A stretch of DNA of 64,000 nucleotides from assembly GCA_963675755.2 (NCBI GenBank), contig CAXXMD010000003.1, forward strand, positions 96,001 to 160,000. Direction: 5' to 3'. This document shows, piece by piece, positions 107 through 59,172 of this stretch. The DNA is from a bacterium (GTDB lineage Bacteria > Zhuqueibacterota > Zhuqueibacteria > Residuimicrobiales > Krinioviventaceae). The notes under the pieces are model-generated. The model was given only the letters and a program-made list of their open reading frames with translations, was not told where the DNA came from and ran no database searches. Made by a program: the position numbers and the translations under genes. How positions within the stretch are numbered: position 1 is the stretch's first letter; each line of letters begins with the position of its first letter.

Positions 107-2530
107 ATGAAGTACCAAATTTCATTTCTGGTTTTCGTTATAGTGGTGTGTTCTACAACTATATTTTCCGAACCAATCAGACAAGGTTTTATTGATAAAG
201 AAACCGCAATAGTATACTCAGGACCAACAACAGATTCTACTGCAATCGACACTTTAAAATTCGGCGAGTTTACACTGGTGTATGGCATTAAAACAGATGA
301 ACAAGACATTTTTAACCAAGAAGGCTGGTCAAAGGTCCGAACGCCAGATGGAAAGTTAGGATGGATTGATTATTCTATACTCTTGATCTCAAATGATGTA
401 ACCTATGTTGCAAAACCAGGAGATATCATTTATGAACAGCCGGACGCCTTATCAACAGTTGTTGATTCGATAAAAACTATAAATCCGCTCTCTGCATTTG
501 AGTTAGAAGAGATAGATGAACAATATTGGCTAAAACTATATTCATACAGTGGAACAAAATGGCTACAAATCGACAGTTTATCATTCCAAATTGAATTTAA
601 ATACTATGAACTGGTAAATAATTTCTTAGGTTATGGTTACCAATTTTTCAATTTTTCCCCTTACAAAGATTATAATAAAGCATTAAAGATTGCACAAGTA
701 TTTTCAGAAACAATAGATCCGGAAACCAGCTTTATCAGTGATGGAATTTATGAAGATATGGGAAAAGTAAAACTTGGTTCAGGAGCATTTGCTTATTATT
801 TAAAATTTATAATATATCAAAGATTTGATGAATGGGAAAACGCAATAACAGCACTAGAAAACATAGCTAATATATATCCGAATCAAAGTTTGATTAAAGG
901 CAATGCAGGTGCCTGGGCCGATCTTGAGATAGGAAAAATATACCACTACAAACTTGAAGAATACAACAAAGCCATCTTTCAATACCATCGGACAATACAA
1001 AAGCATCCTTTTCAGGAATTACATGGCTACGAATCAACGGATTATGTAGATATTCGGGCTGCTTTCAACATCTTTAACATGATAAAAAGCAGCACACATG
1101 ATACATTGGAATCAAATGGTTCTATAATTGTCAATACAGCCGAAAATCCCGCTGCTAAATTGCTTGGTTTTTGTTGCCAGGCTGCAAGTTTAGGAAAACA
1201 AAAAAAATACACAGAACTTTTAGATTTGGTGGAATCTGCAATTACTGAATATCCCGAATGCCGTAGGCTTTATTATTTATCCAGCAGAGATTATTCTACT
1301 ACGCTTGTATCACTTGCATTTGAAATATTAAAAAACAATCAACAATATGACAAATATTATCAATTCAGCAATCGTATGTCTGAAAAATTTAAAAACTATC
1401 CCGTTGGAGAATTAAGTGCATTTAAAAAAGCATATTTGGCAGATATATCAAATGAAGATATTCCAACAATCATATCATACTATAAAACTGTTGATAAAAT
1501 TTCAAGAGACAATGGTAATTATGAATATTTTAATTCAATAACAAACGAAGTCTATTATAGCAATTTATCCAGCAATCGACTTGCAACACTTTCAGAAACT
1601 AAACCTGTTAAAGCAACGACAATACAAGACAGCGTTCAACTTAAATTGGGTATTGACGGAGAATATACAATTTTAGCATTACTACCCCAAAATGTATCAT
1701 TAACCAAACTCTATACAGATCAATTTTTAATTCATACAGATTTTGAAGGGCTTTATACCAAAGTTTTACTCGAGGATTCAACAATTGGTTGGGTATTGTC
1801 AGAACAAATTGAATCTATTATTGAAAACACAATGCCGTCAATAAATGATTCGTTAATTCACAGCATGAATAGAGCACTATCAGAAAACAATCCTGTATTT
1901 GATGGTGATGAAATTCGTAATCCACAAATTGAAAATATTCTTGAGAACTTTAGTGCTAGATTTTTACGATTTTGCGATTTCAATAATGACAATATAACAG
2001 ATTTCATAACTTTTAAAAAAGGTAATTATTTAACTCTAAATGCAATAAACGGCAAGTCATTCGTAATAGAATGGACCTTCTATGTTAATAGCTCGATTAC
2101 ATCACAAAATATTTTGAATGAAAAGTTATTCATCAAAACACGTTATAATGTATTACAATGTATAGACATTTCTAATGGTGAATTGAAATGGGAAAAAGGT
2201 GAAAATCAATATCAGAGACAATTGATTGCACCTTTAATAATAAATAACAAATTATATAATATTTCACAGGACAGTTTCCTGGTATGTTTGGATCCTCAAA
2301 ACGGGCAAGAGTTATGGAAAGGTGATTGTAAACAGAAAAATGTTGATTCTTTCCACGGTAATGATTCTGCTTTGGTAATTTCATACAAAGACAGTCTAAA
2401 GGTATTCAATATTCACAATGGTGAATTTGAATGGGGTATATCTGGAAGAATTTACAACAAACCCACTATTAATAAAAACAAGCTTTACTATTTCAATTGG
2501 GGAAAACGGCGTAGAATTGATCAAATGTGA
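107..2530 (+). CDS. Secreted SH3b/TPR/PQQ-like beta-propeller protein, N-terminal part of a probably frameshifted gene
   Basis: Signal peptide; SH3b-like segments (WSKVRTPDGKLGWI, YTKVLLEDSTIGWV); TPR-like helical repeats; propeller repeats (CIDISNGELKW, CLDPQNGQELW); ends abruptly in GKRRRIDQM while the propeller continues in another frame. Confidence 0.7.
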   Translation: MKYQISFLVFVIVVCSTTIFSEPIRQGFIDKETAIVYSGPTTDSTAIDTLKFGEFTLVYGIKTDEQDIFNQEGWSKVRTPDGKLGWIDYSILLISNDVTYVAKPGDIIYEQPDALSTVVDSIKTINPLSAFELEEIDEQYWLKLYSYSGTKWLQIDSLSFQIEFKYYELVNNFLGYGYQFFNFSPYKDYNKALKIAQVFSETIDPETSFISDGIYEDMGKVKLGSGAFAYYLKFIIYQRFDEWENAITALENIANIYPNQSLIKGNAGAWADLEIGKIYHYKLEEYNKAIFQYHRTIQKHPFQELHGYESTDYVDIRAAFNIFNMIKSSTHDTLESNGSIIVNTAENPAAKLLGFCCQAASLGKQKKYTELLDLVESAITEYPECRRLYYLSSRDYSTTLVSLAFEILKNNQQYDKYYQFSNRMSEKFKNYPVGELSAFKKAYLADISNEDIPTIISYYKTVDKISRDNGNYEYFNSITNEVYYSNLSSNRLATLSETKPVKATTIQDSVQLKLGIDGEYTILALLPQNVSLTKLYTDQFLIHTDFEGLYTKVLLEDSTIGWVLSEQIESIIENTMPSINDSLIHSMNRALSENNPVFDGDEIRNPQIENILENFSARFLRFCDFNNDNITDFITFKKGNYLTLNAINGKSFVIEWTFYVNSSITSQNILNEKLFIKTRYNVLQCIDISNGELKWEKGENQYQRQLIAPLIINNKLYNISQDSFLVCLDPQNGQELWKGDCKQKNVDSFHGNDSALVISYKDSLKVFNIHNGEFEWGISGRIYNKPTINKNKLYYFNWGKRRRIDQM

Positions 2531-3209
2531 TTTAGTTACTGGTAATATTGAATGGAAATTTGATGCAATCCGTTCATTTTCATCATCTGAAGAAATGCTT
2601 GTCACCTCAAATAATGTAATTTTTAATACAGGGAATTCAATCTATGCGGTAAGTAAAAATGATGGTGAACTTGAATGGCAAAAAAATATTAATGTTAGCT
2701 CTGTTGAAAAGTGTGCTGCAGGAAATACATTGTACGTATTATCTAACAGATTTAGTGATTATTCCGGTTTGGCTGCCTATGATCTTGCGTCTGGTATACA
2801 ACAATGGCAAATGGATCATACTTTGGAATCCATCTATTTTCATTCAAACAGAATATTTGTTGAAGGTTTGACCGGGTTATTAATTATCAACAACGCCAAT
2901 TCAACTCTAACAGAAGAACCCTCACACATTACTGAATTTGCCCTGGACCAAAACTATCCCAATCCATTCAACATGAATACAACGATACAATATCGTGTTC
3001 ATAAAAATGCCAATGTTAATATAACAATTTATAATATGCTGGGACAAAAAATAATAACGTTGATTTCCAAAGCACATTCTCCGGGTATGTACCAGACTAC
3101 TTGGGATGGCTTGAACAATAAAAATCAAATGGTGAGTAGCGGACTTTATTTTTATCAAATCAATATAGATGGAGAAATTAAAACCAAATCCATGATTTTG
3201 GTAAAATAA
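2503..3209 (+). CDS. C-terminal continuation: PQQ-like propeller repeats plus T9SS-type/FlgD-Ig C-terminal sorting domain
   Basis: ORF 2418-3209 in the +1 frame. After the GGGG run at 2499-2502 it reads ENGVELIKCDLVTGNIEWKF, then YDLASGIQQW, then LDQNYPNPFN...SSGLYFYQI...KSMILVK. Confidence 0.7.
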
Positions 3210-4295: not shown

Positions 4296-5567
4296 TTATT
4301 TTGTCAGCACCATCTTGATCGTTTGTTCCTCAATGCCGCTTTTCAATGTACAGAAATAAACACCAGACGGCAGTTCTTTTGCTGAAAACTGAATCTGATA
4401 TTGCCCGGGTTCCTGGTAACCATGAACCAATTGCTCAACCTCTTTACCCAGGGCGTTGTAAATTTTCACATCCACCAATCTGCGTTTTTCCAGAGTATAG
4501 GTTATGGATGTGGTCGGATTAAAAGGATTGGGATAATTCTGCATTAACCGCATTTCAGTAGGGACTGTCACCCCACCCTCAATGATTGTTTCGTTTTGCA
4601 TGCGTTCGATTTGAAGCTGCTGCAAATCCGCCCAGCCAATGAGATGTATGCCCTCACTCTCAATCAGATTCCGCATTTCTGCCGAGTCAAACACACGGTA
4701 ATCATAATCCCGATTGCCCCATCTGCTGGTAATGGCCTTGATCTCGTCCGATTCCACTGCGGCATGAATATACAGTTCGGTCACACCCGGCTCTAAATTT
4801 TTAATCATATTACTGTATGCACTCAAGGCATCCTCATAAGAATCGCCATGATCAGAGATCACTTTTAAATAATCAGGCAGTACAAAGCCTTCATTTACCA
4901 GCGAATCCGCCAGGGCTACCAGTTCAGCTTGTCGTGCTTCTGGAATCGCTTCGGTCCAGGGCGAAGACAATTTCCTTGGCAAACGAAACGGTAGATTGTA
5001 TTCCCGGCTGATGCTGAAAATAGCGTCAAAGAAATCCTGACCAAATGCCAACCCGTAAACACTGCCCATATGATTGTCAATATGAGTGGGCGTAATACCA
5101 AATTCAATGGCCTTTTCCACTTGTGCGGTGAGTTCGGTTTTCACCTCGTCTGGGTCGCCATGCAATTCCACATACATCTCGCTTTCCGGGAAAAACCCTT
5201 CCCAGGTCAACAAAGATGGAATAGAGTTCGATGAAGCAACGCCGCCCCATTTGTAATCCCCCCATTCTGCGGTAAGCGTCAAATGTACACCCACGTCCAG
5301 TGTGGGATTCTCGACACAAAATTTGGCAGCTTCCCTGAACCACCCACACGGCACCATGATTGTTGAAGAGGATATCCCGCCGCTTTGCAGCAGATCCATG
5401 GTTGCCTCGTTCTCGGCATGGCACATACCAAAGTCATCTGCGTTGACGATCAAAACCCTGGCATCACTGTCATACCCCAGCATCTCGGCGGTTGACAATC
5501 CAAAGCTCATTTGAGGAATTAAAGCACATATCATTACAAAAAAAATCAAACTCATATCTTTTCGCAT
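4296..5567 (-). CDS. YdjC/ChbG-family carbohydrate deacetylase with C-terminal sorting domain
   Basis: IVNADDFG, GVHLTL, THIDNHM and ELYIH motifs; signal peptide; MQNYPNPFNP...SGVYFC C-terminal domain. Confidence 0.85.
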   Translation of the reverse strand: MRKDMSLIFFVMICALIPQMSFGLSTAEMLGYDSDARVLIVNADDFGMCHAENEATMDLLQSGGISSSTIMVPCGWFREAAKFCVENPTLDVGVHLTLTAEWGDYKWGGVASSNSIPSLLTWEGFFPESEMYVELHGDPDEVKTELTAQVEKAIEFGITPTHIDNHMGSVYGLAFGQDFFDAIFSISREYNLPFRLPRKLSSPWTEAIPEARQAELVALADSLVNEGFVLPDYLKVISDHGDSYEDALSAYSNMIKNLEPGVTELYIHAAVESDEIKAITSRWGNRDYDYRVFDSAEMRNLIESEGIHLIGWADLQQLQIERMQNETIIEGGVTVPTEMRLMQNYPNPFNPTTSITYTLEKRRLVDVKIYNALGKEVEQLVHGYQEPGQYQIQFSAKELPSGVYFCTLKSGIEEQTIKMVLTK

Positions 5568-21342: not shown

Positions 21343-22017
21343 TTAAAACCGGTAACTCAACAAATCCATTTTAACACCCGGTTTGCCGCAGGAATCCTGG
21401 AAATAGCCCACTTGCCCTATAGATACATTTTTATCCGACTTGACGGGGCCTAAATTATAGGATAATATCGAAAAAGCAGGTGGTAAGACATATGTTAAAA
21501 CAACTCCCAAATTAGAATCAGAGGTTTCCAATGCTACCATCGCAATACCCGTCCCCAAAACAGAACCGCCCAATGCCCACAGAAAAGACCGGTCTTTTTT
21601 TGCTATCACTCCTGTAACATGTACGCCACCCGCTATTCCCAACGCGTAACCTGCAAAAACCGTAAGAAACAATCCTCCCACATCTGTATCCCGATTATTG
21701 ACAAACTGATTGCCATCAATTGCCAATCCCGCTGCCACACCCAGGGCTCCCCCCAATTCTGCCAGAATTAACTGCACCACGTAATAATCGGTCTCATATA
21801 CAGGATGCTTCATATCAGATAATCGCAAAGCATTCATTGAAATACCCGGTTCTGAATTATACCGAAAGGTATTCATACAAAAGTCATTCTGAGAAGCATT
21901 GGATCGGGGGAAAAGTTGATGTCCAGATGAATTGTGCTGTACTTGTGCAGAAACTAACGAGCTGAACATAAACAGCAACGCCAATATTACTTTAACAAAA
22001 ACAATTTCTTTTCTCAT
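21343..22017 (-). CDS. Unknown envelope protein, paralog 7 of tandem array
   Basis: Signal peptide, Gly/Ala-rich hydrophobic helices, C-terminus SIGQVGYFQDSCGKPGVKMDLLSYRF. Confidence 0.85.
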   Translation of the reverse strand: MRKEIVFVKVILALLFMFSSLVSAQVQHNSSGHQLFPRSNASQNDFCMNTFRYNSEPGISMNALRLSDMKHPVYETDYYVVQLILAELGGALGVAAGLAIDGNQFVNNRDTDVGGLFLTVFAGYALGIAGGVHVTGVIAKKDRSFLWALGGSVLGTGIAMVALETSDSNLGVVLTYVLPPAFSILSYNLGPVKSDKNVSIGQVGYFQDSCGKPGVKMDLLSYRF

Positions 22018-22040
22018 AACTTTTTCCCTCACAAATCACA

Positions 22041-22736
22041 TTAAAACCGATAGCTCAACAAATCCATTTTAACACCAAGGCCGCCGCAGGCATCCTGATA
22101 ATAGCCTAGCTGTCCTACAGAGATTTCAGGAGAATAATCAGTCCCGTTCAACTCTTTGTGATCTTGGGGTTTTGCTTTTTTATTATACATCGCCATTGAA
22201 CAAATCGGTGGCAACAAAAAACCAGCTGTGATACTCAAAGTTGAATTACCGGGATTTGAATCAGTTTCCAATGCTAAAACACCAATTGCTATTGCTGTTC
22301 CTAATAGAGACCCCAACAATGCACGCTTGTAAGATCCGTTTTGCCCAAATGCTTCACCTATACCATATGATCCCAATGAAACTCCCATAGCAAACCCTGC
22401 ATAAGTAGACAGCACTCCTCCGGCCATCGAACCGTCAAGAATATTAAAACCTATTAATGCTCCTGCAAATAAACCCAAACAACCCGAAACTTCAGCTATA
22501 ATAAATTGTCCAGCCAAATAATAACCATCATAAATATCTGTATTTGTTGCTACAGCAGATTCACGATCATTTAATCGCGGAGATTGATATTGACACAGAT
22601 TTACCGACCTCTCGCCCTGGTAATTGTATGGCACCAACCGGGGAGTGTTATCGGATTTGCTTTCGGGTTCCTGTGCGAAAACCGTAGAAGAGAATACCAT
22701 GCAGATAGTGACAAGAAACAAAAAGCTGTTTTTCAA
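22041..22736 (-). CDS. Unknown envelope protein, paralog 6
   Basis: TTG start after AAGGAGA; AQEPESKSDNTPRLVPYNYQG; C-terminus ISVGQLGYYQDACGGLGVKMDLLSYRF. Confidence 0.85.
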   Translation of the reverse strand: MKNSFLFLVTICMVFSSTVFAQEPESKSDNTPRLVPYNYQGERSVNLCQYQSPRLNDRESAVATNTDIYDGYYLAGQFIIAEVSGCLGLFAGALIGFNILDGSMAGGVLSTYAGFAMGVSLGSYGIGEAFGQNGSYKRALLGSLLGTAIAIGVLALETDSNPGNSTLSITAGFLLPPICSMAMYNKKAKPQDHKELNGTDYSPEISVGQLGYYQDACGGLGVKMDLLSYRF

Positions 22737-22821
22737 AATATGTCTCCTTGATAAAATTATAGCCCAAACAGGATTTTCCCCATGCGTTTTAAATTAAATT
22801 TTTTAGAGGTAATGTATGTAT

Positions 22822-22847
22822 GTACGAATGGATATACTCAATGTTCC
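22822..22847 (-). promoter_or_regulatory. Putative ECF sigma promoter GGAAC-N17-GTAC
   Basis: Conserved boxes and spacing in three upstream regions, with a divergent spacer in one. Confidence 0.6.
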
Positions 22848-22973
22848 ATTTTGAAACCGCGCAAATCCTGCTAAAGACCGGGAGCGTTTGTAAGAGTTCA
22901 GCACTAAAAAAATCAAACATTCAATCCTATCATCCTTAAATCCGATAAATCATAATTCAGACAGATAACCCGA

Positions 22974-23681
22974 TCAAAACCGGTAACTTAACAAATCCAA
23001 TTTAATGCCAGGGCCGCCGCATGCATCCTGATAATATCCGAGCTGCCCGACAGAGATTTCAGGTGAAAAACCAGTCTCTTTGAATCTATTGGGATATTTG
23101 GATTTAAATTTTCTGTTATAATTTATCATGGAACAGATTGTGGGCATAAGAAGCAATGCTGGACCTGTAAATACCGGAGTCTTGCTGTCTTTTTCTATTG
23201 CTGCTATGGTCATTCCTATACATGCCCCAAATAAAGAACCTTCAAGTGCTCGCCAATATGTACCATTTTGTACCTGTTTATAACCTGTTCCGTGTACTCC
23301 AAAAGCAACCCCTAATGTATACGACGTATACCCTATAACGATTGCAGCAGCAAGTCCATCCCATCCTTCTCTCCTGAACAAAGCTGGCCCCACGAGTACA
23401 CCGGTTGTCATCCCAAGCCCACCTATAAACTCTGCCATTAAAAATTGTTTAACAAAATATCCGAACGTAGCGCCTTGACCGGTTTCTGATAAAGGTTCGA
23501 CAGAACCCTGTAAATTCAATGGATCGGGATAACACCAATACAAGTTGACAGTACTTTTACCCTGAAAATTATAGGGAACAAGCCGGGGAGCATAATCAGA
23601 TTTGCTTTCGGGTTCCTGTGCAAAAACAGTAGAAGAGAATACCGTGCAGATAGTGACAAGAATCAAAAAGCTTTTTTTCAA
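22974..23681 (-). CDS. Unknown envelope protein, paralog 5
   Basis: TTG start at 23681 after AAGGAGA; same N- and C-terminal modules as paralogs 4 and 6. Confidence 0.85.
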   Translation of the reverse strand: MKKSFLILVTICTVFSSTVFAQEPESKSDYAPRLVPYNFQGKSTVNLYWCYPDPLNLQGSVEPLSETGQGATFGYFVKQFLMAEFIGGLGMTTGVLVGPALFRREGWDGLAAAIVIGYTSYTLGVAFGVHGTGYKQVQNGTYWRALEGSLFGACIGMTIAAIEKDSKTPVFTGPALLLMPTICSMINYNRKFKSKYPNRFKETGFSPEISVGQLGYYQDACGGPGIKLDLLSYRF

Positions 23682-23767
23682 AATATGTCTCCTTGATAAA
23701 ATTATAGCCCAAACAGGATTTTTCCCCATGCGTTTTAAATTAAATTTTTTAGCGGTAATGTATGTAT

Positions 23768-23793
23768 GTACGAATGGATATACTCAATGTTCC
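23768..23793 (-). promoter_or_regulatory. Putative ECF sigma promoter GGAAC-N17-GTAC
   Basis: Identical to the 22822-22847 copy. Confidence 0.6.
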
Positions 23794-23835
23794 ATTTTGA
23801 AACCGCGCAAATCCTACCGAGGGCTGGGAGACAGA

Positions 23836-24564
23836 TTAGAACCTGCAACTCAACAAATACATTTTAACACCGAGGCCGCCGCAGGCATCCTGATAATAGC
23901 CAAGCTGCCCCACAGAGATTTCAGGAGAATAATCAGTTTCTTTGAATCTATTGGGATATTTGGGCTCAAGTTTCATGTTATACGCTGCCATAGAACAAAT
24001 CGTCGGTAGAAAAACTATAGATGCAAATATAATATTGGTTTCCTTTCGATTATAATTGTCAAATGGCCTAAATGATTCAGAATGTGCAGCAATGATCCCC
24101 AAACCCATTCCTGCTGTCGCCCCAATCAACGACCATTCGTACGAGCCCTTCTTTTTTGCTTTTCTGCCCATTCTGAAAACACCGTTGGCAACCCCAAAGG
24201 AATAACTTGCATATATAATATACAATCCTGTATCAATAGCGTGCTCCTCATCGGCTGCTCCAATCAAAGCTACACCCAAAGTACCCGCCAGAATCCACAT
24301 GAATCCGCTTGTTTCAGCCACAACAAACTGCAATATATAATAATCAAGAGGAGAAATTGTTTCCCAGGATACGGAATTCTGTTCAATTCTGTAAAAATCC
24401 GGCAAATCCGTAATATCTTTGTATAAATTAAAGGTGTTTTTTCCCTGGTAATTGTACGGAACCAGCCGGGGAGTATTATCTGATTTGCTTTCGGGTTCCT
24501 GTGTGTAAACCGTTGAAAAGAATGCCATAAAGATACTGACAAGAAACAAAAAGCTATTTTTCAA
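23836..24564 (-). CDS. Unknown envelope protein, paralog 4
   Basis: TTG start after AAGGAGA; QEPESKSDNTPRLVPYNYQG; C-terminus GYYQDACGGLGVKMYLLSCRF. Confidence 0.85.
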   Translation of the reverse strand: MKNSFLFLVSIFMAFFSTVYTQEPESKSDNTPRLVPYNYQGKNTFNLYKDITDLPDFYRIEQNSVSWETISPLDYYILQFVVAETSGFMWILAGTLGVALIGAADEEHAIDTGLYIIYASYSFGVANGVFRMGRKAKKKGSYEWSLIGATAGMGLGIIAAHSESFRPFDNYNRKETNIIFASIVFLPTICSMAAYNMKLEPKYPNRFKETDYSPEISVGQLGYYQDACGGLGVKMYLLSCRF

Positions 24565-24647
24565 AATATGTCTCCTTGATAGAATTATCCTGGCAGGAAC
24601 AAGCCCCTTTGCGATTTAAATTCATTTTTTAGCAATATTGTATGTAT

Positions 24648-24673
24648 GTACTATTGTACCAGCCCGATGTTCC
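24648..24673 (-). promoter_or_regulatory. Putative ECF sigma promoter GGAAC-N17-GTAC
   Basis: Boxes and flanks conserved; 9 of 17 spacer bases differ from the other two copies. Confidence 0.6.
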
Positions 24674-24798
24674 ATTTTGAAACCGTGCAAGTCCTGCTAA
24701 AGGCCGGGAGCGTTTGTAAGAGTTCAGCACTAAAAAAAACAGCATTCAAACCTTTCATTCTTAAATCCTATGAATCATAATTCAGACAGGAAACCCGA

Positions 24799-25494
24799 TC
24801 AAAACCTGCAACTCAACAAATCCATTTTAATACCGAGGCCGCCGCAGGCATCCTGATAATAGCCAAGCTGTCCTGTAGATATTTCTGGTCCATGGGATTT
24901 AGAGTTGCCTTTATTATACAATATCATTGAAAGCGGAATCGGCAGTAGAAACGTCAATGCCGCCCCCACATTAGCGACTTCTGAACCTTGTCCCGCAATA
25001 ATGGCGCCCAGCCCAATACTGGTTCCAATTGCAGATCCCATCAAAGCCTGTAAAAACGGCAAGTCCTTATTATTGATGATACCAACCACATGCACACCTG
25101 TTGCAACTCCCAGAGCATATCCCGCATAAGCAAATCCAACCAGTTTTACAAAATCACTGCCCTCTTCATCATCACTGAATTCAACCCCGCTAAAGTTCAC
25201 TCCTGCTGCTGTCCCCAACGCTCCTCCCAATCCTGCCATTAAAAACTGTGATATTAAATACCCGCCTTCTGGTTTATTTTTTTTATTTAGGGATGTATTA
25301 TCAGCATTTCTGAACAAACTCGAATTCGCATGATAGCGGTTCAAATCCACTCCCATATCCTTTTGCTGAATATAGGGAATAATTCGGGCTGCATTTTCAA
25401 ATGTAATGCCTAAACCCGGGTCGGTCGCATACACTGCCTGCGTAAATAAAAGACAAACCATTAACACACTGCCAAAGCCAAATATCTTTTTCAT
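24799..25494 (-). CDS. Unknown envelope protein, paralog 3
   Basis: Signal peptide; QFLMAG..G; C-terminus EISTGQLGYYQDACGGLGIKMDLLSCRF. Confidence 0.85.
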   Translation of the reverse strand: MKKIFGFGSVLMVCLLFTQAVYATDPGLGITFENAARIIPYIQQKDMGVDLNRYHANSSLFRNADNTSLNKKNKPEGGYLISQFLMAGLGGALGTAAGVNFSGVEFSDDEEGSDFVKLVGFAYAGYALGVATGVHVVGIINNKDLPFLQALMGSAIGTSIGLGAIIAGQGSEVANVGAALTFLLPIPLSMILYNKGNSKSHGPEISTGQLGYYQDACGGLGIKMDLLSCRF

Positions 25495-25581
25495 TCAAGC
25501 ACCCCATTTCTGTTTATAAACCCGGATTTATCCCCGGGAACCTAAAAAAAATCTATACCGATTACAAAGCAATTCCGACTA

Positions 25582-26295
25582 TTAAAATCTACAGCTCAAT
25601 AAATCCATTTTAACGCCTGGGCCGCCGCATGCATCCAGATAGCATCCAAACTGACCGGCAGATATTTCCACAGAGCGGGTATTATTCGCACTTGCAGAAT
25701 CCCGTTTATTATAAAGTATTATGGAACATACCGGCGGCAGTAAAACAAGAGACGAAAGACTAATTACAGCCTGGGGCTTGTTATTATCCAATTGAGAGGT
25801 AATGGCTATTGCCAATCCTACTCCAATAAAAGATCCTTTTAGCGCCTTACCAAAAGAACCGGAGACATTTGCATAACTCCCAACCTTGTGAACACCAAAA
25901 GCCGAACCCAATGCATACCCGGCATAAGCACCGATCACGACAAATTCAATTCCATCCATATCTTCACTTTGACTATCCACAAAAGGTATGCCGCAAATCC
26001 CCCCAACAAAGGACAGGATTATACCATTAATCTCTGCAGATACAAATTGCTTGATATGCAATTTGGAATTTATATTTTTTTGTTCATTTTGATTTATGTC
26101 AGATAACGCAATTCCGGAATACTGTCCTGTGCTCATACGAAAAGCCGATAGGTTATCCCCGCTGTAATGTAAAGACACAGGGAACGATTTTACATGGGTC
26201 TGGTTAGAATTGTGCTGACCGGCAAGGATTTTTGTGGCAGACAACAGCGCCAAAATTAATAGTAACTCTAAATGTATTAATCGAAATTTCAACAT
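25582..26295 (-). CDS. Unknown envelope protein, paralog 2
   Basis: Signal peptide; QFVSAEING; C-terminus EISAGQFGCYLDACGGPGVKMDLLSCRF. Confidence 0.85.
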   Translation of the reverse strand: MLKFRLIHLELLLILALLSATKILAGQHNSNQTHVKSFPVSLHYSGDNLSAFRMSTGQYSGIALSDINQNEQKNINSKLHIKQFVSAEINGIILSFVGGICGIPFVDSQSEDMDGIEFVVIGAYAGYALGSAFGVHKVGSYANVSGSFGKALKGSFIGVGLAIAITSQLDNNKPQAVISLSSLVLLPPVCSIILYNKRDSASANNTRSVEISAGQFGCYLDACGGPGVKMDLLSCRF

Positions 26296-26336
26296 CTCCC
26301 CTCTCAAATATTAATAATCGCAATAGATAATCCGCT

Positions 26337-27092
26337 TTAAAATCGCCAGCTAAAAACATTCACAATAACAGTATTCCCCCTCTTTTCATCATGAGAATAG
26401 TTGAACGCATTCATGGACAATCCTACATTTCCGCCATCAATGCTCACAACAGAATTCAGATCATTCATATGACTGGTAATATTATAACTTGCGATAGCGC
26501 CAATGGTTGGCAAAAAAAGAGTCAAAACCGAAATACTTTTATCATCATTAAATTCTTCATCACTTTCATCATAAGCATTTTCAACCATTAATCCCACCCC
26601 TGTTCCAATTAGCGCACTGGTCAACGTCCACCAAAAAGAGCCGTATCTATTCGCTTTTTCACCAACCCGATACACACCATCCACAACGCCATATGTATAA
26701 CTAGCAGATACAACATAATATCCGGTTTCAGACATATCCCAGTCATTCCCCACGTGAACAGCATATACAACCAGGGCACTTGTAAGCAGGCATATAAGCC
26801 CTTCGGTTTCTGCCATTAGAAACTGTAAACCATAATATTGTATAGAATTAAATACACTTAGATCATGAGCTCTATATCCATCTGTTACTGAATTATAAAC
26901 CAGAAAATCCAGATCCAATGCCTCTTTCCCCTGGTAATTAAAAGGAACCAAAACCGGACTATCGTCTAGTGTATTAAATTGACTGGTCATTTCTGTTGTT
27001 TTTTTATTCCTCTGTAAAAGGTTTTGCGGAAAAACGGTTGAACAAAAAATCAGTGCTAATAAAATCCCGGCCCGTAGTGATCTGAGATACAT
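26337..27092 (-). CDS. Unknown envelope protein, paralog 1 (most diverged)
   Basis: LVPFNYQG, QFLMAETEG, GSFWW, LPTIG..SYN; C-terminus VIVNVFSWRF. Confidence 0.8.
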   Translation of the reverse strand: MYLRSLRAGILLALIFCSTVFPQNLLQRNKKTTEMTSQFNTLDDSPVLVPFNYQGKEALDLDFLVYNSVTDGYRAHDLSVFNSIQYYGLQFLMAETEGLICLLTSALVVYAVHVGNDWDMSETGYYVVSASYTYGVVDGVYRVGEKANRYGSFWWTLTSALIGTGVGLMVENAYDESDEEFNDDKSISVLTLFLPTIGAIASYNITSHMNDLNSVVSIDGGNVGLSMNAFNYSHDEKRGNTVIVNVFSWRF

Positions 27093-32081: not shown

Positions 32082-33803
32082 ATGACTGGTGCAGAAATGA
32101 TTTTACACGCTTTAAAACAGGAAGGCGTAAACGCGGTTTTCGGTTACCCGGGTGCCTCGGTAATCGATATTTTCGATTTATTGTATGATGGAGATATCCC
32201 GTTTTATCTGGTAAGACATGAACAGGGTGCGGTACACGCAGCAGACGGCTTTGCCCGTGCATCCGGCAAAGTGGGAGTTTGTCTGGCCACTTCCGGACCC
32301 GGTGCTACCAATCTGGTAACCGGTCTGGCTACAGCTCACATGGATTCAATCCCCATGGTTGCCATTACCGGCCAGGTAGCCACCCACCTGATCGGGAATG
32401 ATGCGTTTCAGGAAGTCGATATGGTGGGTATCAGCAGACCCATTACCAAGCACAATTATCTGGTAAATTCAGTTGAGGAATTGCCCATAATTTTAAAACA
32501 GGCCTTTCATATTGCACGCAGCGGCAGGCCCGGTCCGGTATTAATTGACATTCCCAAAGATCTTCAACGAATGGAATGTACCGTTCCCTATCCGGACCAT
32601 ATAGAAATCTCCAGCTACAAGCCAACCTTAAAAGGCCATACGCAGCAGCTCAAAAAGGCGATAAATTTAATCGAGCGCAGTAAAAAACCGGTTATTTACG
32701 CAGGGGGTGGTGTTATTGCCAGCGAAGCAAGCAGCGAACTTCGAACCTTTGCAGAAAAGATCAATGCTCCCGTCACAACGACATTGATGGGATTAGGGAT
32801 TTACGATGAAACCGCACCCAATGCATTAAAAATGCTGGGGATGCACGGTACCGAATATGCCAACTACTCTATTCAGGCATGCGATTTATTGATTGCAGTT
32901 GGTGCCCGTTTTGATGACAGGGTTACCGGCAAAGTTGATAAATTTGCACCCAACGCCAAAATCATTCATATTGATATCGATCCCACAACCATCCGTAAAA
33001 ACGTTCAGGTCAATATACCCATCGTTGGAGATGTTAAACATGTTCTGGCAGATCTGATAGAAATGATTGAGCAACAAGATAAAGCAGAATGGATTTCACA
33101 GGTGCGGGAATGGAAAGAAAAGCACCCCCTGACATTTAAAAACGATGGTTTTATTCAACCACAATTTGTGATCGAAAAAATCGCAGAAATGACAAACCAT
33201 AAAGCAATTATTACCACAGAAGTCGGCCAGAACCAGATGTGGACAGCACAGTTTTTCAATTTTAAACATCCGCGTACCTTTTTATCATCCGGCGGCCTGG
33301 GAACGATGGGCTATGGATTCCCCGCAGCTATTGGCGCTCAAATTGCCCACCCGGATAAAGTGGTGATTGATATAGCTGGCGACGGTAGCATCCAGATGAA
33401 TATACAGGAACTGGCAACCGCAGTTTTGTATCAAATACCAGTCAAAATCGTTATACTTAATAATCGTTCCCTGGGCATGGTAAGACAATGGCAGGCTATA
33501 TTCTATGACAGGCGTTTTGCATCAACCTGTCTGCGCCGCAATGCCCAATGTCCACCGCAATGTGAACAGACAGAAGAATTTTGTCCTACAGAGTATGTAC
33601 CCAATTTCGTCAAACTGGCCGAAGCTTATGGTGCAACCGGTCTTTATGCGGACAAAGTTGAGGATGTTGTGCCCACTTTGGAAAAAATGTTGAATACACC
33701 GGGTCCGGTTGTTGTTGAATTCAAGATAGAAGCGGAAGAAAATGTTTATCCCATGGTGCCGGCAGGCGCCCCGATTCATGAAATGATAAGAGGCATGGCA
33801 TAA
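32082..33803 (+). CDS. ilvB: Acetohydroxyacid synthase large subunit, copy 1
   Basis: FGYPG, RHEQGA, TSGPGATN, GDGS..MNIQEL..NN ThDP motif. Confidence 0.97.
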   Translation: MTGAEMILHALKQEGVNAVFGYPGASVIDIFDLLYDGDIPFYLVRHEQGAVHAADGFARASGKVGVCLATSGPGATNLVTGLATAHMDSIPMVAITGQVATHLIGNDAFQEVDMVGISRPITKHNYLVNSVEELPIILKQAFHIARSGRPGPVLIDIPKDLQRMECTVPYPDHIEISSYKPTLKGHTQQLKKAINLIERSKKPVIYAGGGVIASEASSELRTFAEKINAPVTTTLMGLGIYDETAPNALKMLGMHGTEYANYSIQACDLLIAVGARFDDRVTGKVDKFAPNAKIIHIDIDPTTIRKNVQVNIPIVGDVKHVLADLIEMIEQQDKAEWISQVREWKEKHPLTFKNDGFIQPQFVIEKIAEMTNHKAIITTEVGQNQMWTAQFFNFKHPRTFLSSGGLGTMGYGFPAAIGAQIAHPDKVVIDIAGDGSIQMNIQELATAVLYQIPVKIVILNNRSLGMVRQWQAIFYDRRFASTCLRRNAQCPPQCEQTEEFCPTEYVPNFVKLAEAYGATGLYADKVEDVVPTLEKMLNTPGPVVVEFKIEAEENVYPMVPAGAPIHEMIRGMA

Positions 33804-34347: not shown

Positions 34348-36069
34348 ATGACTGGTGCAGAAATGATCGTTCACGCTTTAAAACAAGAAGGTGTACGTGC
34401 GTTATTCGGTTACCCGGGTGGTTCGGTGATCGATATCTTTGATGTATTGTACAAATCAGATCTTCCATTTTATCTTGTGCGGCATGAACAGGGTGCAGTC
34501 CACGCTGCAGACGGTTTTGCACGTGCATCCGGTGAAGTGGGTGTCTGTCTTGCAACATCAGGGCCGGGGGCTACAAACCTGGTAACAGGTTTAGCTACTG
34601 CTCATATGGACTCTATTCCGATGGTAGCAATAACAGGACAAGTTCATACTCATTTGATTGGTAACGATGCATTTCAAGAAGTCGACATTGTTGGCATCAG
34701 CAGACCCATTACAAAACACAATTATCTGGTTAGCTCGGTAGATGAATTGCCTAAAATTTTAAAACAAGCATTTTATCTGGCCCGCACGGGCAGACCTGGT
34801 CCGGTTTTGGTGGATATCCCCAAAGATATTCAACAAACCGAGTGCAAGGTCCCCTATCCGGATAAAGTTGAAATTCCAAGCTATAAACCCACAATGAAGG
34901 GCCATTTGCAGCAGCTCAAAAAAGTTGCCAAAGCCATTGAACAAAGTAAACAACCCGTTATTTACGCCGGTGGTGGTGTTATTGCAAGCGAAGCAAGCAA
35001 TGAACTGCGTACCTTTGCTAAAAAGATCAATGCTCCCGTTACTACAACGCTGATGGGACTCGGAATTTATGACGAGACTGATGATGATGCGTTAAAAATG
35101 CTGGGTATGCACGGTACGGAATATGCCAATTACTCTATTCAGGCATGCGATTTGTTGATTGCTGTTGGTGCTCGCTTTGATGACAGAGTTACCGGCAAAG
35201 TCGATAAATTCGCAGCCAATGCTACAATTATTCATATCGATATCGACCCTACAACCATTCGTAAAAACGTTCAGGTCAACATTCCTATCGTTGGTGATAT
35301 TAAACATGTGCTTACTGATCTGAACGAGCTCATTGAACAGCAGGATAAAAAAGAATGGATTTCTCAGGTTCATGAATGGAAAGAAAAACATCCGCTGGTT
35401 TACAAAAACGATGGTCACATTCAACCACAATATATCATTGAAAAACTGGCTGAAATGACTGATCACAATGCGGTTATCTCTACCGAAGTGGGTCAAAACC
35501 AGATGTGGGCGGCACAGTTTTACAATTATAAAAATCCGCGTACCTTTTTATCATCTGGCGGTTTGGGAACCATGGGTTACGGATTCCCCGCAGCCATTGG
35601 CGCCCAGGTTGCACAGCCGGACAAGGTCGTTATTGATATTGCGGGTGACGGCAGCATCCAGATGAACATTCAGGAACTGGCCACCGCGGTATTGTATCAA
35701 ATACCCGTCAAGATTGTAATCCTCAACAATCGCTCACTTGGCATGGTGAGACAATGGCAGGGTATATTCTATGACAGACGCTTTTCATCTACGTGTTTGC
35801 GGCGTAATGCCATGTGTCCACCGCAATGTGAACAAACAGAGGAGTTCTGCCCGGAAGAATACGTTCCCAATTTCGTCAAACTGGCAGAAGCCTATGGAGC
35901 AACCGGTCTTTATGCGGATAAAGTTGAGGATGTAGTACCAACTTTGGAAAAAATGCTGAATACTCCGGGCCCGGTTGTTGTTGAATTCAAGATAGAAGCT
36001 GAAGAAAATGTTTACCCCATGGTGCCGGCTGGTGCCCCAATCCATGAAATGATAAGAGGAATGGCATAA
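34348..36069 (+). CDS. ilvB: Acetohydroxyacid synthase large subunit, copy 2
   Basis: Same motifs and same length (573 aa) as copy 1; stop overlaps the ilvN start. Confidence 0.97.
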   Translation: MTGAEMIVHALKQEGVRALFGYPGGSVIDIFDVLYKSDLPFYLVRHEQGAVHAADGFARASGEVGVCLATSGPGATNLVTGLATAHMDSIPMVAITGQVHTHLIGNDAFQEVDIVGISRPITKHNYLVSSVDELPKILKQAFYLARTGRPGPVLVDIPKDIQQTECKVPYPDKVEIPSYKPTMKGHLQQLKKVAKAIEQSKQPVIYAGGGVIASEASNELRTFAKKINAPVTTTLMGLGIYDETDDDALKMLGMHGTEYANYSIQACDLLIAVGARFDDRVTGKVDKFAANATIIHIDIDPTTIRKNVQVNIPIVGDIKHVLTDLNELIEQQDKKEWISQVHEWKEKHPLVYKNDGHIQPQYIIEKLAEMTDHNAVISTEVGQNQMWAAQFYNYKNPRTFLSSGGLGTMGYGFPAAIGAQVAQPDKVVIDIAGDGSIQMNIQELATAVLYQIPVKIVILNNRSLGMVRQWQGIFYDRRFSSTCLRRNAMCPPQCEQTEEFCPEEYVPNFVKLAEAYGATGLYADKVEDVVPTLEKMLNTPGPVVVEFKIEAEENVYPMVPAGAPIHEMIRGMA

Positions 36070-56519: not shown

Positions 56520-57275
56520 TTACTTGAGCAGTAACAATTTCCGTGTAAAGTTGTATTCTGTGGATTGAAAACGGTAAAAATAAATCCCCGATGGCAAACC
56601 ATGCATATCCAAATTAATATGATAGCTCCCTGAATTATAATACCGGTTAATGAGTGAAAGCACCAATTCCCCATTAATATTATAAAGCGCTAAAGATACC
56701 CGCCCCGCCTGCGGTAAATCAAATTTTATAACCGTTTCATCATTAAAGGGATTGGGATAATTCTGGTATAACCTGAACTCAGAAGGCGCTTGTACAAACG
56801 GATCATGAATTCCGGTTTCAGGATCAAAAACCAATACTCCTGTTTCCACCTGCACTGAGTCAATACCTTGAGCCAGGGTATCGGCAAGAACTACCTCGGT
56901 AGTAAAACGCAATGTATCAGAGCCGGTGATTTGCCGGTCTACGGTTAAAAGCAAATCCGCCAGTTTTTGATTACCAGCAAGAATAGAACGCCCCTGTTTA
57001 TGATAAATCAACACCCGCTCACCATTGGTTAATGCAGTAAAGTCCCCAATCTCATCTGCCAAAACCACGCTGTCAATCCTGACAATAGCGGAATCATCCT
57101 CCAACTCGAATTGAATACCGGCCACTGACGGGTCAGTTTCCAGAAAAACAGGAATGCTCAAAGAATCCGGACCCAGCTCACCCGAGGTACCAAAATATAA
57201 CCGAGTTGAGGGCAATGCAGTCAAACTGTTAAACAGTAAAATTCCTGTCAATATATATCGTTTCAAACATTTCAT
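56520..57275 (-). CDS. Secreted cohesin-like/Ig domain protein with C-terminal sorting domain
   Basis: Signal peptide; IPVFLE...VAGIQFEL cohesin-like strand pattern; LYQNYPNPFN..PSGIYFYR. Confidence 0.7.
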   Translation of the reverse strand: MKCLKRYILTGILLFNSLTALPSTRLYFGTSGELGPDSLSIPVFLETDPSVAGIQFELEDDSAIVRIDSVVLADEIGDFTALTNGERVLIYHKQGRSILAGNQKLADLLLTVDRQITGSDTLRFTTEVVLADTLAQGIDSVQVETGVLVFDPETGIHDPFVQAPSEFRLYQNYPNPFNDETVIKFDLPQAGRVSLALYNINGELVLSLINRYYNSGSYHINLDMHGLPSGIYFYRFQSTEYNFTRKLLLLK

Positions 57276-57276
57276 A

Positions 57277-59172
57277 CTATTGAATATAAACCATTTTTTT
57301 CAATTTATGAAAGCCATTTCCTGTCAGTTCGTAGAAATACACACCTGATGGCACCCGACTGCCAAAACGGTCACGGCCATCCCAGACTTTACGATACGCA
57401 CCTGCCGCGTATTTCCCACCAGCAAGACGAATTACCTCCTGCCCCAGCGTATTGTATATTGTCAAATTTACCTCTCCCGCATCTGCAAGCGAAAAGGAGA
57501 TAACCGTATTCGAGTTAAAAGGATTGGGATAATTGTCATACAGTTCCCAACTATTGACATCTTTCCCTGTATTGTCAATCGCGAGCGGAAAATCAATCTC
57601 TAAAGAATCAACTGCCATAGGAGCACCTCTAGGCCATGTCCCTTTTCTTCCCATACTGTCTGTAGCAGAAATATAATACTGGATAACTCCCGAATACTCG
57701 TTTCCAGGTATCTTTGCCTGGTATCTGTCAATGGGTACAATATATTCCACATCCAGTGAATCAAACGCACCGGATTTCCCATAACGATAATGTACCTTAA
57801 AAGAGGCTGTATCCAATGCAACCGGATCCGTTAATAAAACAGGCGGATTAATGGAAGCAAGGATTGTATAGTCATCAGCAGGATGCTTGAATGTGCTATA
57901 ACTGTAATCCATTATTTCCGGTTCCTCTCCTGCAGCCCAGGCCATAAATAAATTGGCGCCCAGGTTCTCATAACACATAAAATCGATTTCGGTGGTATCC
58001 GGCCAGAATCCTCCCTGCACCGAAAGTCCCACTTCGGGAGTAATGGCAAAAATCCCTTGTTCTCCATATAGCCAGTCATCCGAACTGCCATTTGCCAGAT
58101 AGCCAAGCTTGTTTGTAACTCCATTGTCTGGGGTGTAACCGTTATATGCAACACAACTGTCATTCAATGCCAGAAAAGCAGAGTAATCCGGTTCTTCCGG
58201 ATTCTCGGGTTTGAACCCCCACGGATAGAGCCACAAGTTCCCATAGCTGTGATAAAACAGGCTGATTACAAAATCATGCGCTTCCACAAATTCTTTAATG
58301 GCCCAGGTCTCGGGTTCTGAAAAAGGCGCTAATCCCCGGTAACTTTCACTATTCATATTCGGGCTCGAACCAACATCATTAAATGCCCAGGAAAAACCAA
58401 AATTCCGGTTCAGGTCTACCCCGTCTTTATCCGGATTAAAAATTCCGTTGCCATCGTTATCGTGCATATTTTTACGCCACAAAATAGGATTTGAGGTGCT
58501 GTAAATGCCGCCATAATCTCCGGTAAAGACATAATCCCTACCATCAGGATTCACACACAAGATAAACCACAACTCGCGGTTATTGATCAAATGAGTAGCA
58601 AATGCATTGGTGCCATAGCCATTCAACAAATAATCGATGAAAACAATCAATACTTCAGGAGTAACAATTTCTCTGGCATGAATAGCTGCTGTATACAAGA
58701 CATCCGCTTCGGTTGAATCCTCAACCGAGACATCATCAGATATTTTCATTGCAAGAATATCAAATCCTTTATTATAGGCGACTTTATTATAGCTGTCTCC
58801 AATATCAAAAATCCGCACTAAATCAGGATAGGCGTTTTCCAGAGAATCCATTAACGCTTCTATCTGTTGGATACTGTGAAAATGCTTGAAATAATTGCTG
58901 TTGCGCAATTCATCATAAAATCCATTCAAATCATCAATAACCGTATCAAACGAGAATCCCAAATTCTGCAATTCTTTTTGCTGTTCATAGGTCAAAATTG
59001 CTTCCACAATCCCGGATTCAGACGAGATATGGGTAACATCCAAATCCATCTCGTAAAATTGTTTAATATCATCCGGATTTTCGGTCTCTATTCTTAAAAG
59101 TGAAGGTGCCGAATTATTCGCAGCATAAATTGTCATGGTTAAAAATACCATACAAGCAATAATGTGTTTCAT
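57277..59172 (-). CDS. M14 zinc carboxypeptidase (carboxypeptidase T-like) with C-terminal sorting domain
   Basis: IHARE, NPDG, WRKN, GVDLNRNF, FSEPET, YHSY, TPEVG; DNYPNPFN..WDGRD..SGVYFY. Confidence 0.92.
   Translation of the reverse strand: MKHIIACMVFLTMTIYAANNSAPSLLRIETENPDDIKQFYEMDLDVTHISSESGIVEAILTYEQQKELQNLGFSFDTVIDDLNGFYDELRNSNYFKHFHSIQQIEALMDSLENAYPDLVRIFDIGDSYNKVAYNKGFDILAMKISDDVSVEDSTEADVLYTAAIHAREIVTPEVLIVFIDYLLNGYGTNAFATHLINNRELWFILCVNPDGRDYVFTGDYGGIYSTSNPILWRKNMHDNDGNGIFNPDKDGVDLNRNFGFSWAFNDVGSSPNMNSESYRGLAPFSEPETWAIKEFVEAHDFVISLFYHSYGNLWLYPWGFKPENPEEPDYSAFLALNDSCVAYNGYTPDNGVTNKLGYLANGSSDDWLYGEQGIFAITPEVGLSVQGGFWPDTTEIDFMCYENLGANLFMAWAAGEEPEIMDYSYSTFKHPADDYTILASINPPVLLTDPVALDTASFKVHYRYGKSGAFDSLDVEYIVPIDRYQAKIPGNEYSGVIQYYISATDSMGRKGTWPRGAPMAVDSLEIDFPLAIDNTGKDVNSWELYDNYPNPFNSNTVISFSLADAGEVNLTIYNTLGQEVIRLAGGKYAAGAYRKVWDGRDRFGSRVPSGVYFYELTGNGFHKLKKMVYIQ

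Follow-up and report, generated by a model that had tools for sequence, protein, structure and literature searches.

The array and its products

We studied seven paralogous genes that lie in tandem at 21343-27092 on the minus strand of a 64,000-nucleotide stretch of bacterial DNA (assembly GCA_963675755.2, contig CAXXMD010000003.1, positions 96,001 to 160,000 of the forward strand), which we refer to as the window. The open reading frames (ORFs) are co-oriented and, taken at their longest, encode 229-251 amino acids (aa). They can be aligned from end to end, with 27-40% identity to copy 1 (Table 1). For copy 1 an ATG at 22017 is the more likely start and gives 224 aa, the length of database entry P0003; copy 3 likely starts at 23681, which gives 235 aa, the length of entry P0006.

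An original prediction, made from the DNA letters alone, described the genes as seven co-oriented paralogs with a signal peptide. This was confirmed, with exported-type N-termini in 7/7 copies. All seven open with a basic N-terminus and a hydrophobic stretch. In copies 1, 2, 3, 5, and 6 the mature Q, T, or G directly follows a small-x-small site whose -1 residue is Ala, whereas the residue at -1 is Thr in copy 4 and Pro in copy 7. The best 12-residue window of the copy 2 signal peptide scored -2.15 kcal/mol on a Hessa-type scale. There is no L-(A/S)-(G/A)-C lipobox in the seven N-termini. The seven genes are real and their products are exported.

The invariant columns of the alignment are Q87, A91, G95, G132, G136, G141, L154, G160, P184, Y192, N193, and the terminal R-F, and they correspond to the sparse conserved anchors noted originally. 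The PYNYQG-like motif that had been seen in several copies is present in copies 2, 3, 4, and 7 and is degenerate in copy 5. The Gly-zipper-like character of the helices also held up: strict motifs, counted by the GxxxG-type glycine-zipper definition that reportedly goes back to Kim et al. in 2005, occur 2-7 times per core in 7/7 copies. The copy 2 core has 7 of them, which was matched by 0/1000 composition-preserving shuffles, and the enrichment over shuffles is clear only for this copy and for copy 3 (37/1000).

Table 1. Coordinates in the window of the seven array genes, of parts of their products, and of a repeat element
Feature	Position	Strand	Extent	Remarks
Copy 1	21343-22032	-	229 aa from GTG	Ortholog s1 in sister genome G001 88% identical
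Copy 1 parts				Signal peptide, four Gly-rich helices, and tail with conserved LLSYRF end
Copy 2	22041-22736	-	231 aa	Structure-modelled copy; ortholog s2 95% identical, core 100%
Copy 2 signal peptide	22674-22736	-	Residues 1-21	N-terminus basic, then a hydrophobic stretch; VFA before QEP
Copy 2 four-helix glycine-zipper core	22179-22526	-	Residues 71-186	AlphaFold2 helices, zipper motifs
Copy 2 C-terminal beta tail	22044-22130	-	Residues 203-231	Ends YRF; AlphaFold2 strands, selection
Copy 3	22974-23729	-	251 aa, longest ORF	Ortholog s3 core 96% identical
Copy 4	23836-24564	-	242 aa	No ortholog in sister genome G001; tail Cys 228 and 240
Copy 5	24799-25494	-	231 aa	Only two Cys of the mature protein are tail Cys 217 and 229
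Copy 6	25582-26307	-	241 aa	Ortholog s6 core 93% identical
Copy 7	26337-27092	-	251 aa	Longer family-type tail; no loop Cys
Conserved non-coding element (repeat family D5)	22789-22915	-		Upstream of copy 2

Predicted fold and C-terminal tail

The AlphaFold2 model of copy 2, made with 150 aligned sequences, has a mean predicted local distance difference test score (pLDDT) of 78. It has four helices (H1-H4; residues 71-99, 104-129, 136-160, and 165-186) with block pLDDT of 88-98. The tail, which had been described as a beta-hairpin, was instead modelled as four strands of 4-5 residues (204-207, 210-214, 220-224, and 227-230), with block pLDDT of 60-85 over 201-230 and a lower value at the last residue. 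The copy 7 model likewise has four helices, and its tail is poorly defined (pLDDT 45-69). In these models the four-helix bundle is predicted with confidence and the mini beta tail with low to moderate confidence. The products appear to be built from a short variable segment, two marginally hydrophobic zipper hairpins, a basic collar at the face that holds the N- and C-termini, and a beta tail of approximately 30-50 residues.

In copies 1-6 the tail has the form (I/V)SxGQxGxxxDxCGxxGxKxxLLSxRF, is about 29 residues long, and ends LLS(Y/C)RF. Copy 7 has a longer and different tail that ends SWRF and aligns column for column along the whole family tail; copies 1-6 are without its first strand. 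That six copies share a tail and that the last residue is Phe had both been stated, and both are borne out: the terminal Phe is present in 7/7 copies and the common tail of copies 1-6 is under purifying selection (see below). We also parsed the tails of the wider family, leaving out 31 rows that had no parseable helix-4 motif. In this crude parse 86/143 matches from outside the array had a tail of at least 18 aa, and the last residue of these tails is F in 63/86, L in 11, and W in 2. The feature that we took to mark membership, which is a tail with a hydrophobic last residue after an FN(L)xRRY-type end of helix 4, is present in 7/7 copies.

As a comparison, the canonical beta-signal is GxxFxF (PMC13067283). 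Position -2 of the array tails is Y, Y, Y, and W in copies 1, 2, 3, and 7 (aromatic in 4/7) and C in copies 4-6. Position -5 is L in copies 1-6 and F in copy 7, with Gly in 0/7. The conserved loop Cys that was pointed out originally is specific to copies 1-6 of the genus; copy 7 and typical family members lack it. Both tail Cys of copy 5 are kept in its ortholog s5, and each of these two mature proteins has exactly two Cys, 12 residues apart. A disulfide between an N-terminal Cys and the tail Cys of copy 1 was considered and dropped because the ortholog has no N-terminal Cys.

The wider family

With a 21-sequence profile (A2), HMMER retrieved 2416 cluster representatives at E ≤ 0.001, of which 639 remain at a cut-off of 1e-10 and 15 at 1e-30; typical members have E of about 1e-19. 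The representatives come from many uncultured diderm phyla. The best 150 of the 2416 and about 100 others were inspected. A word-indexed search with the alignment of the seven paralogs gave 5 matches, only in the genome of the window (G000) and in that of a sister species (G001). Aligned with hhalign against 8 typical members, the seven paralogs matched with a probability of 99.3% (E 1.5e-20) over 225 columns that include the tail. A typical member begins with a signal peptide and a variable segment, after which come a KPPLS...GRIAGE motif, four Gly-rich helices, IGFNLTRRYKSPP, and the tail, which has the form ALINFxDGQMxLAVP...PDxFG...VDLV(R/K)VRF. Helices 2 and 3 are joined by a conserved GVYxxGxxGNETGSF turn. 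This is a real and large family that is uncharacterized; all source names of the members seen were 'hypothetical protein'.

The original prediction took the array for an undescribed system. This stands to the extent that no curated family fits, since the seven copies had no fitting Pfam or NCBIfam model (E ≤ 1) and no PADLOC or PHROGs match. However, the array is not private, but belongs to the family of 2416 representatives. A survey based on the tail had also been suggested, with array sizes in mind; the profile search showed a mostly single-copy family that is not confined to the window. Among the 150 members the most frequent Pfam matches (E ≤ 0.01) were PF05433 (6/150), PF13488 (4/150), and PF13441 (3/150), and the most frequent NCBIfam match was YiaD_Gzip (5/150). 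The nearest ESM Atlas clusters are unnamed, a window copy and a typical member map to the same two clusters, and the nearest named cluster carries Gly-zipper_YMGG on 21% of its members. The kinship of the family to glycine-zipper families is weak. In the literature on glycine-zipper outer-membrane proteins we found no description of an architecture with signal peptide, four helices, and beta tail, and only work on SlyB/YfgH and on type VII secretion system toxins.

The named records that bear members are metagenome bins labelled Fidelibacterota, Poribacteria, Planctomycetota/Phycisphaerales, and Proteobacteria. In the phylum of the window, 22/167 genomes have a match at E ≤ 1e-5, a count that includes one genome flagged as unpublished (G158). 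There are 10 matches only in each of G000 and G001 and 1-2 in each of the other 20. Small tandem sets occur elsewhere, with three members in locus L035, two in L036, and two in L028. No conserved gene neighbor was found across 18 loci. Domains fused N-terminally in relatives are CotH, choice-of-anchor Z repeat (CoaZ), DUF4901, and PEGA, which we take to be secreted or surface-type modules.

We also searched with 10 Ala/Arg/Pro-rich members chosen by eye (A7). This gave 5 matches, and the sole named one is a 'hypothetical protein'. Eight of the 10 have a conserved Cys pair in the acidic loop at the H1-H2 tip together with a shortened tail that ends G(R/S/T)F or W. Three further distant paralogs lie outside the array in G000 (L008, L009, and L010). 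The paralog in L008 (1360-2028, minus strand) has a long tail that ends HF and adjoins a sulfatase-like gene with a twin-arginine signal, and the one in L009 (1321-1872, plus strand) is tail-less and adjoins a GDSL-like gene. A tail-less 184-aa paralog in L010 (872-1968, minus strand; G000:C3:2371746-2375045) and in L026 of G001 overlaps the start of an ORF of 180-204 aa. With its signal peptide, alternating pattern, and aromatic-rich C-terminus, this ORF looks like a small barrel of the outer membrane; it has no Pfam match, and the pair is kept in both genomes.

History of the array and selection

A syntenic seven-gene array is present in G001. In a maximum-likelihood tree one branch (support 97/98) separated the 14 array genes from 21 other family members, and six ortholog pairs were recovered at 100% bootstrap, leaving copy 4 and one G001 copy unpaired. 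In contigs of a second organism the stretch 23922-24792, and with it copy 4, is skipped. From the pairs in the tree and the skipped copy 4, the duplications are older than the split between G000 and G001, with one later gain or loss per side. At the level of the genus, a family that is usually single-copy has expanded in tandem to give the array.

The six ortholog pairs are 79-95% identical, with a whole-gene ratio of nonsynonymous to synonymous substitution (dN/dS) of 0.13-0.34. Between orthologs, conservation is highest in the helical core, at 84-100% identity and a proportion of nonsynonymous differences (pN) of 0.00-0.07. Between paralogs the cores are 28-45% identical and the synonymous differences are saturated (pS 0.64-0.76). 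The high identity of the ortholog cores indicates that the differences among helices are old and fixed for each paralog rather than the product of ongoing surface variation. This goes against the idea of variable displayed helical domains, as does the apolar, membrane-like character of the cores.

Among the tails of copies 1-6, identity was 62-93% and pN was 0.03-0.21 compared with pS of 0.35-0.67 (8 pairs compared). Between the copy 2 tail and those of copies 3, 4, and 5, pN was 0.03-0.06 and pS 0.37-0.46. Because pN is far below pS, the tail of copies 1-6 is under strong purifying selection at the protein level. The copy 7 tail is 28% identical to that of copy 2 (pN 0.50, pS 0.42). The lower pS at both ends of the genes and in the common spacers hints at some gene conversion, although few codons are involved in this comparison.

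Charge, hydrophobicity, and predicted location

The family occurs in three forms, which are proteins with neither signal nor tail (about 150-170 aa), proteins with a signal and no tail, and proteins with both. Among 214 scored proteins, 108 have both, 36 have the signal only, 51 have neither, and 19 have a tail with no detected signal. The last group consists of 5 signal peptides missed by the cut-off, 2 behind an over-long called start, 4 records that begin inside the protein, and 8 ambiguous cases. None of the 46 signal-less proteins with a KPPLS start has the tail.

Signal-less members come mostly from Planctomycetota metagenome bins and were found with an 8-member profile of signal-plus-tail forms (A5) at E down to 1e-32. 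They share the core and the basic flanking motifs KPPLS...R and TRRYK with the signal-bearing forms, but they lack the signal peptide and tail and their helices are more hydrophobic. One of them, P0224 (310 aa), carries an N-terminal TIR domain (TIR_2, E 1.9e-18). The TIR fusion at the N-terminus and the positive-inside rule place both termini in the cytoplasm, and by sequence the signal-less members are apparently inner-membrane proteins. This suggests that the four-helix core can also act as an inner-membrane effector or anchor module. The TIR domain of P0224 is of the Thoeris/Pycsar type. One Planctomycetota bin has a tandem triplet of signal-less, tail-less members (L035, 4482-5966).

The signal-bearing forms have the same charge pattern as the signal-less ones, even though their N-terminus is exported. 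Over 150 rows, the mean number of K+R was 6.08 on the face formed by the N-terminus, the H2-H3 loop, and the C-terminus, compared with 1.35 on the hairpin tips. Since the N/C regions have about twice the length of the tips, the bias per residue is about 2.4-fold. More K+R was found on the N/C face in 147/150 rows. An inner-membrane span of the exported forms would therefore breach the positive-inside rule, because the basic face would be periplasmic and the acidic tips cytoplasmic.

Predicted insertion energies also differ between the classes. On a Hessa-type scale, with values summed without position weighting, the best 19-residue window per array copy gave +1.1 to +2.9 kcal/mol and the four best windows were all above zero in 7/7 copies. 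The number of windows below zero averaged 0.02 in 93 members with signal and tail and 1.07 in 46 signal-less members (Mann-Whitney p = 4e-19, kinship ignored); the signal-less class is largely one clade, so comparisons between classes are phylogenetically non-independent. A pair of Cys in the H1-H2 tip loop was found in 22/134 signal-bearing members and 2/46 signal-less members, which suggests a disulfide and hence a tip outside the cytoplasm. Together, charge, insertion energy, the paired Cys, and the link between tail and signal argue that the exported members probably do not span the inner membrane.

The window comes from a diderm genome, in which 14 matches to the Omp85 family and at least 150 C-terminal domains of the type IX secretion system (T9SS) type were found. 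PF04453 (LptD) was not found in it. The T9SS C-terminal domain (Por_Secre_tail, TIGR04183 / PF18962) is present in 0/7 array copies.

Comparison with known proteins

According to two sources, SlyB and YfgH have one glycine-zipper hairpin and form transmembrane rings in the outer membrane that stabilize this membrane and its proteins (10.64898/2025.12.22.696046; PMC13067283). The array proteins resemble the SlyB/Pcp/YfgH group (PF05433) in having Sec export and a marginally hydrophobic, GxxxG-rich hairpin followed by a small periplasmic beta part, with the location of the array proteins being predicted from sequence. Other echoes of SlyB are weak and consist of the few PF05433 matches in the family and a VIA-align Z of 4.8 to SlyB chain 7ojf_A (25% identity over 60 residues), which is within helical-bundle noise.

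There are also clear differences. SlyB and YfgH are lipoproteins carried by Lol. By contrast with their lipoprotein signal and single hairpin, the array proteins have a signal of the signal peptidase I type, two hairpins, and a Phe-ended tail, and 0/7 copies match any glycine-zipper model (PF05433 and related, E ≤ 1). The array proteins may resemble glycine-zipper outer-membrane proteins in mode of action, and they fall outside that group by profile match, lipobox, and number of hairpins. PF05433 was not found in G000 or G001, and 2/21 genomes searched (G000 and 20 relatives) were positive. It is speculation that the family could fill the role of PF05433 in these two species.

Two other comparisons were made. 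Tim17/Tim22/Tim23/NDUFA11 proteins have four Gly-rich helices of similar length. In VIA-align the chains of TIM22, TIM23, and complex-I B14.7/NDUFA11 gave Z of about 5, again within helical-bundle noise, and the best match of a sequence-profile search of the PDB was NDUFA11 at E 0.2. However, these are eukaryotic organelle proteins with no signal peptide or beta tail, and PF02466 (Tim17) was not among the families matched in the 150 members. Such structural matches appear to be resemblances only. Outer-membrane proteins with a beta-signal (PMC13067283) and trimeric autotransporters resemble the array products in a C-terminal strand that ends in Phe, with an aromatic at -2 in some copies. They differ in that the array tails have no Gly at -5 and strands of only 4-5 residues, and in that the N-terminal part is hydrophobic rather than a soluble passenger.

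A proposed mode of action and its alternatives

We tentatively favor the idea, to which we give slightly less than an even chance, that the array encodes helical outer-membrane proteins that work like SlyB and use the tail for targeting or assembly. The outer membrane was also the destination in the original prediction, and this part of it is retained; its barrel, toxin, and kin-recognition proposals are unsupported. In our model the proteins would be exported by Sec and the cleavable signal peptide removed. The hydrophobicity of the helices would be too low for them to stop in the Sec translocon; for this reason, and because the charge pattern does not suit an inner-membrane span, the whole protein would enter the periplasm. 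From there the two helical hairpins would move into the outer membrane with the acidic tips outward; the basic collar would stay at the inner leaflet, and the tail and the conserved turn between H2 and H3 would lie on the periplasmic side. The C-terminus, which is like that of an outer-membrane protein, could engage the outer-membrane assembly machinery (BAM) for targeting, or it could pair neighboring protomers by strand addition. The seven paralogs might be subunits of, or alternatives in, an oligomeric assembly that stabilizes the membrane or acts as a scaffold. More doubtful is the broader proposal of a new class of non-lipoprotein, four-helix glycine-zipper proteins of the outer membrane, whose helices would be tuned to escape the translocon and which would be delivered or assembled by a minimal Phe-ended beta tail and form rings of mixed paralogs in this genus.

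Several points weigh against an outer-membrane location with SlyB-like action. We know of no route to the outer membrane for helical proteins that are not lipoproteins. The Lol route of SlyB-type proteins is inapplicable because the seven copies have no lipobox, and no copy matches a glycine-zipper model, as noted above. The beta-signal is only partly present, given that Phe is found in 7/7 copies, the aromatic at -2 in 4/7, and Gly at -5 in 0/7. The tail cannot be the sole targeting device because 36 signal-bearing relatives are without it, and its pLDDT is 45-85 in the models of copies 2 and 7. The seven window copies themselves lack the Cys pair of the H1-H2 tip loop. No structural match rose above noise: Foldseek found nothing in the PDB at E ≤ 0.001, and the best VIA-align hit (Z 8.0) was the transmembrane part of dolichyl-phosphate mannose synthase, an unrelated protein within the usual range for helical bundles. 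The limits on the insertion scale and on the class comparisons given above count here as well.

An inner-membrane location, which we think unlikely while still giving it some weight, would have SecYEG insert four spans after cleavage of the signal, with the termini and tail in the periplasm; there the tail would form a small domain or be bound through its C-terminus by a PDZ-type protease or chaperone. Hydrophobic helices behind a signal peptide end up in this way by default. The helices are 22-29 residues long with Kyte-Doolittle means over 19 residues that reach 1.4-2.3, and the signal-less homologs, including the TIR fusion P0224, are almost certainly inner-membrane proteins with both termini inside. 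In addition, a Peptidase_S41-like gene adjoins the G001 array, but the match is weak and the gene is absent from the window. One difficulty is the charge pattern, as the K/R-rich face of 147/150 members would be in the periplasm, against the positive-inside rule. All helices of the seven copies also have predicted insertion energies above zero, unlike those of the signal-less homologs, and in 22/134 signal-bearing members the paired Cys would lie in a cytoplasmic loop. If the proteins do reside in the inner membrane, only the unusual charge pattern would set the family apart from ordinary small membrane proteins.

The two remaining ideas come from the original prediction, and we consider both improbable, the tail-built barrel even more so than the toxin. 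As exported membrane-permeabilizing toxins or bacteriocin-like effectors, the paralogs would form a toxin repertoire. The premise was that glycine-zipper helices are known from pore-forming effectors; the joining of the core to a defense-type TIR domain in a signal-less relative would fit a membrane-disrupting effector module, and there are the small tandem sets in L035, L036, and L028. However, the absence of interspersed immunity-like ORFs, which had been noticed at the outset, holds both within and beside the array. There is no conserved neighbor in the 18 loci and no PADLOC or PHROGs match for the core; kin recognition has no pointer in its favor either. The orthologs are under purifying selection (dN/dS 0.13-0.34), the array is syntenic in two species in a glycoside-hydrolase neighborhood with no signs of mobility, and the family is mostly single-copy. 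Nor do the copies have a secretion-system signal, including the T9SS C-terminal domain that is so frequent in this genome.

In the other idea, a minimal autotransporter-like system, the tails of several and possibly mixed protomers would form a barrel assembled by BAM that displays the helices. This is a special case of an outer-membrane location. It draws on the terminal Phe of 7/7 copies and 63/86 family tails, on the conserved tail Cys of copies 1-6, and on the restriction of the tail to signal-bearing members, save for missed, miscalled, or cut N-termini and the 8 ambiguous cases. The poor packing of the tail in the monomer models (pLDDT 45-85) would be expected if partners are needed. By contrast, strands of 4-5 residues are too short to be transmembrane strands, and their faces are not cleanly divided into hydrophobic and polar. 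The passenger would be an apolar four-helix bundle that itself needs a membrane, its helices are conserved between species rather than varied, and the N-terminus shares its face with the basic collar and the tail. At E ≤ 1 there was no match to an autotransporter or YadA-anchor family.

To our knowledge helical proteins are rare in bacterial outer membranes. In this family an ordinary signal peptide is combined with a C-terminus like that of an outer-membrane protein and with helices that are apparently tuned against capture by the inner membrane. If the proteins do reach the outer membrane, they would show that helical proteins have a second way into it and that the beta-signal can serve a new purpose. 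The occurrence of one core with and without signal and tail is a natural experiment on the destination of a marginally hydrophobic helical hairpin.

Spacers and surrounding genes

The spacers between successive copies are 8, 237, 106, 234, 87, and 29 bp. They contain no ORF longer than 57 aa and none that is a credible gene. For the spacers of 237 and 234 bp a small coding ORF was considered and rejected, because there are two open frames and the differences show no bias toward synonymous sites. These two spacers have in common a non-coding element that is about 80% conserved. Copies of the D5 element of Table 1 also lie at 23735-23861 and 24615-24741, with 79-83% identity. An Rfam scan of the window gave 0 matches. 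A stretch of approximately 40 nt at 22923-22963 and about 24748-24788, directly downstream of the stops of copies 3 and 5, is covered by metagenome contigs at a depth of 10-24 compared with about 4, and the flanks of those contigs are unrelated on both sides. It looks like a short dispersed repeat that is common to other places or organisms.

The base composition of the array is similar to that of its flanks, which on the same strand contain an aldo/keto reductase gene and GH106-like, GH31, and GH30/59-like genes. In G001 only, an extra gene for a 569-aa protein (L027, 4226-5935, minus strand) lies between the aldo/keto reductase gene and the array. Its product has a weak match to Peptidase_S41 (E 1e-5, 25.6 bits) and matches to TPR, and it has no counterpart in the window. 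A tail-specific protease beside proteins with a conserved C-terminus is curious.

Elsewhere in the window, Por_Secre_tail, the T9SS sorting domain, ends four ORFs. These encode a PQQ/beta-propeller protein (2418-3209, plus strand), a YdjC-like protein (4296-5567, minus strand), a 251-aa protein (56520-57275, minus strand), and an M14 carboxypeptidase (57277-59172, minus strand). Two thiamine-pyrophosphate enzymes of 573 aa are encoded in tandem at 32082-33803 and 34348-36069 on the plus strand; they have an identical three-domain layout and are acetolactate-synthase-like paralogs.

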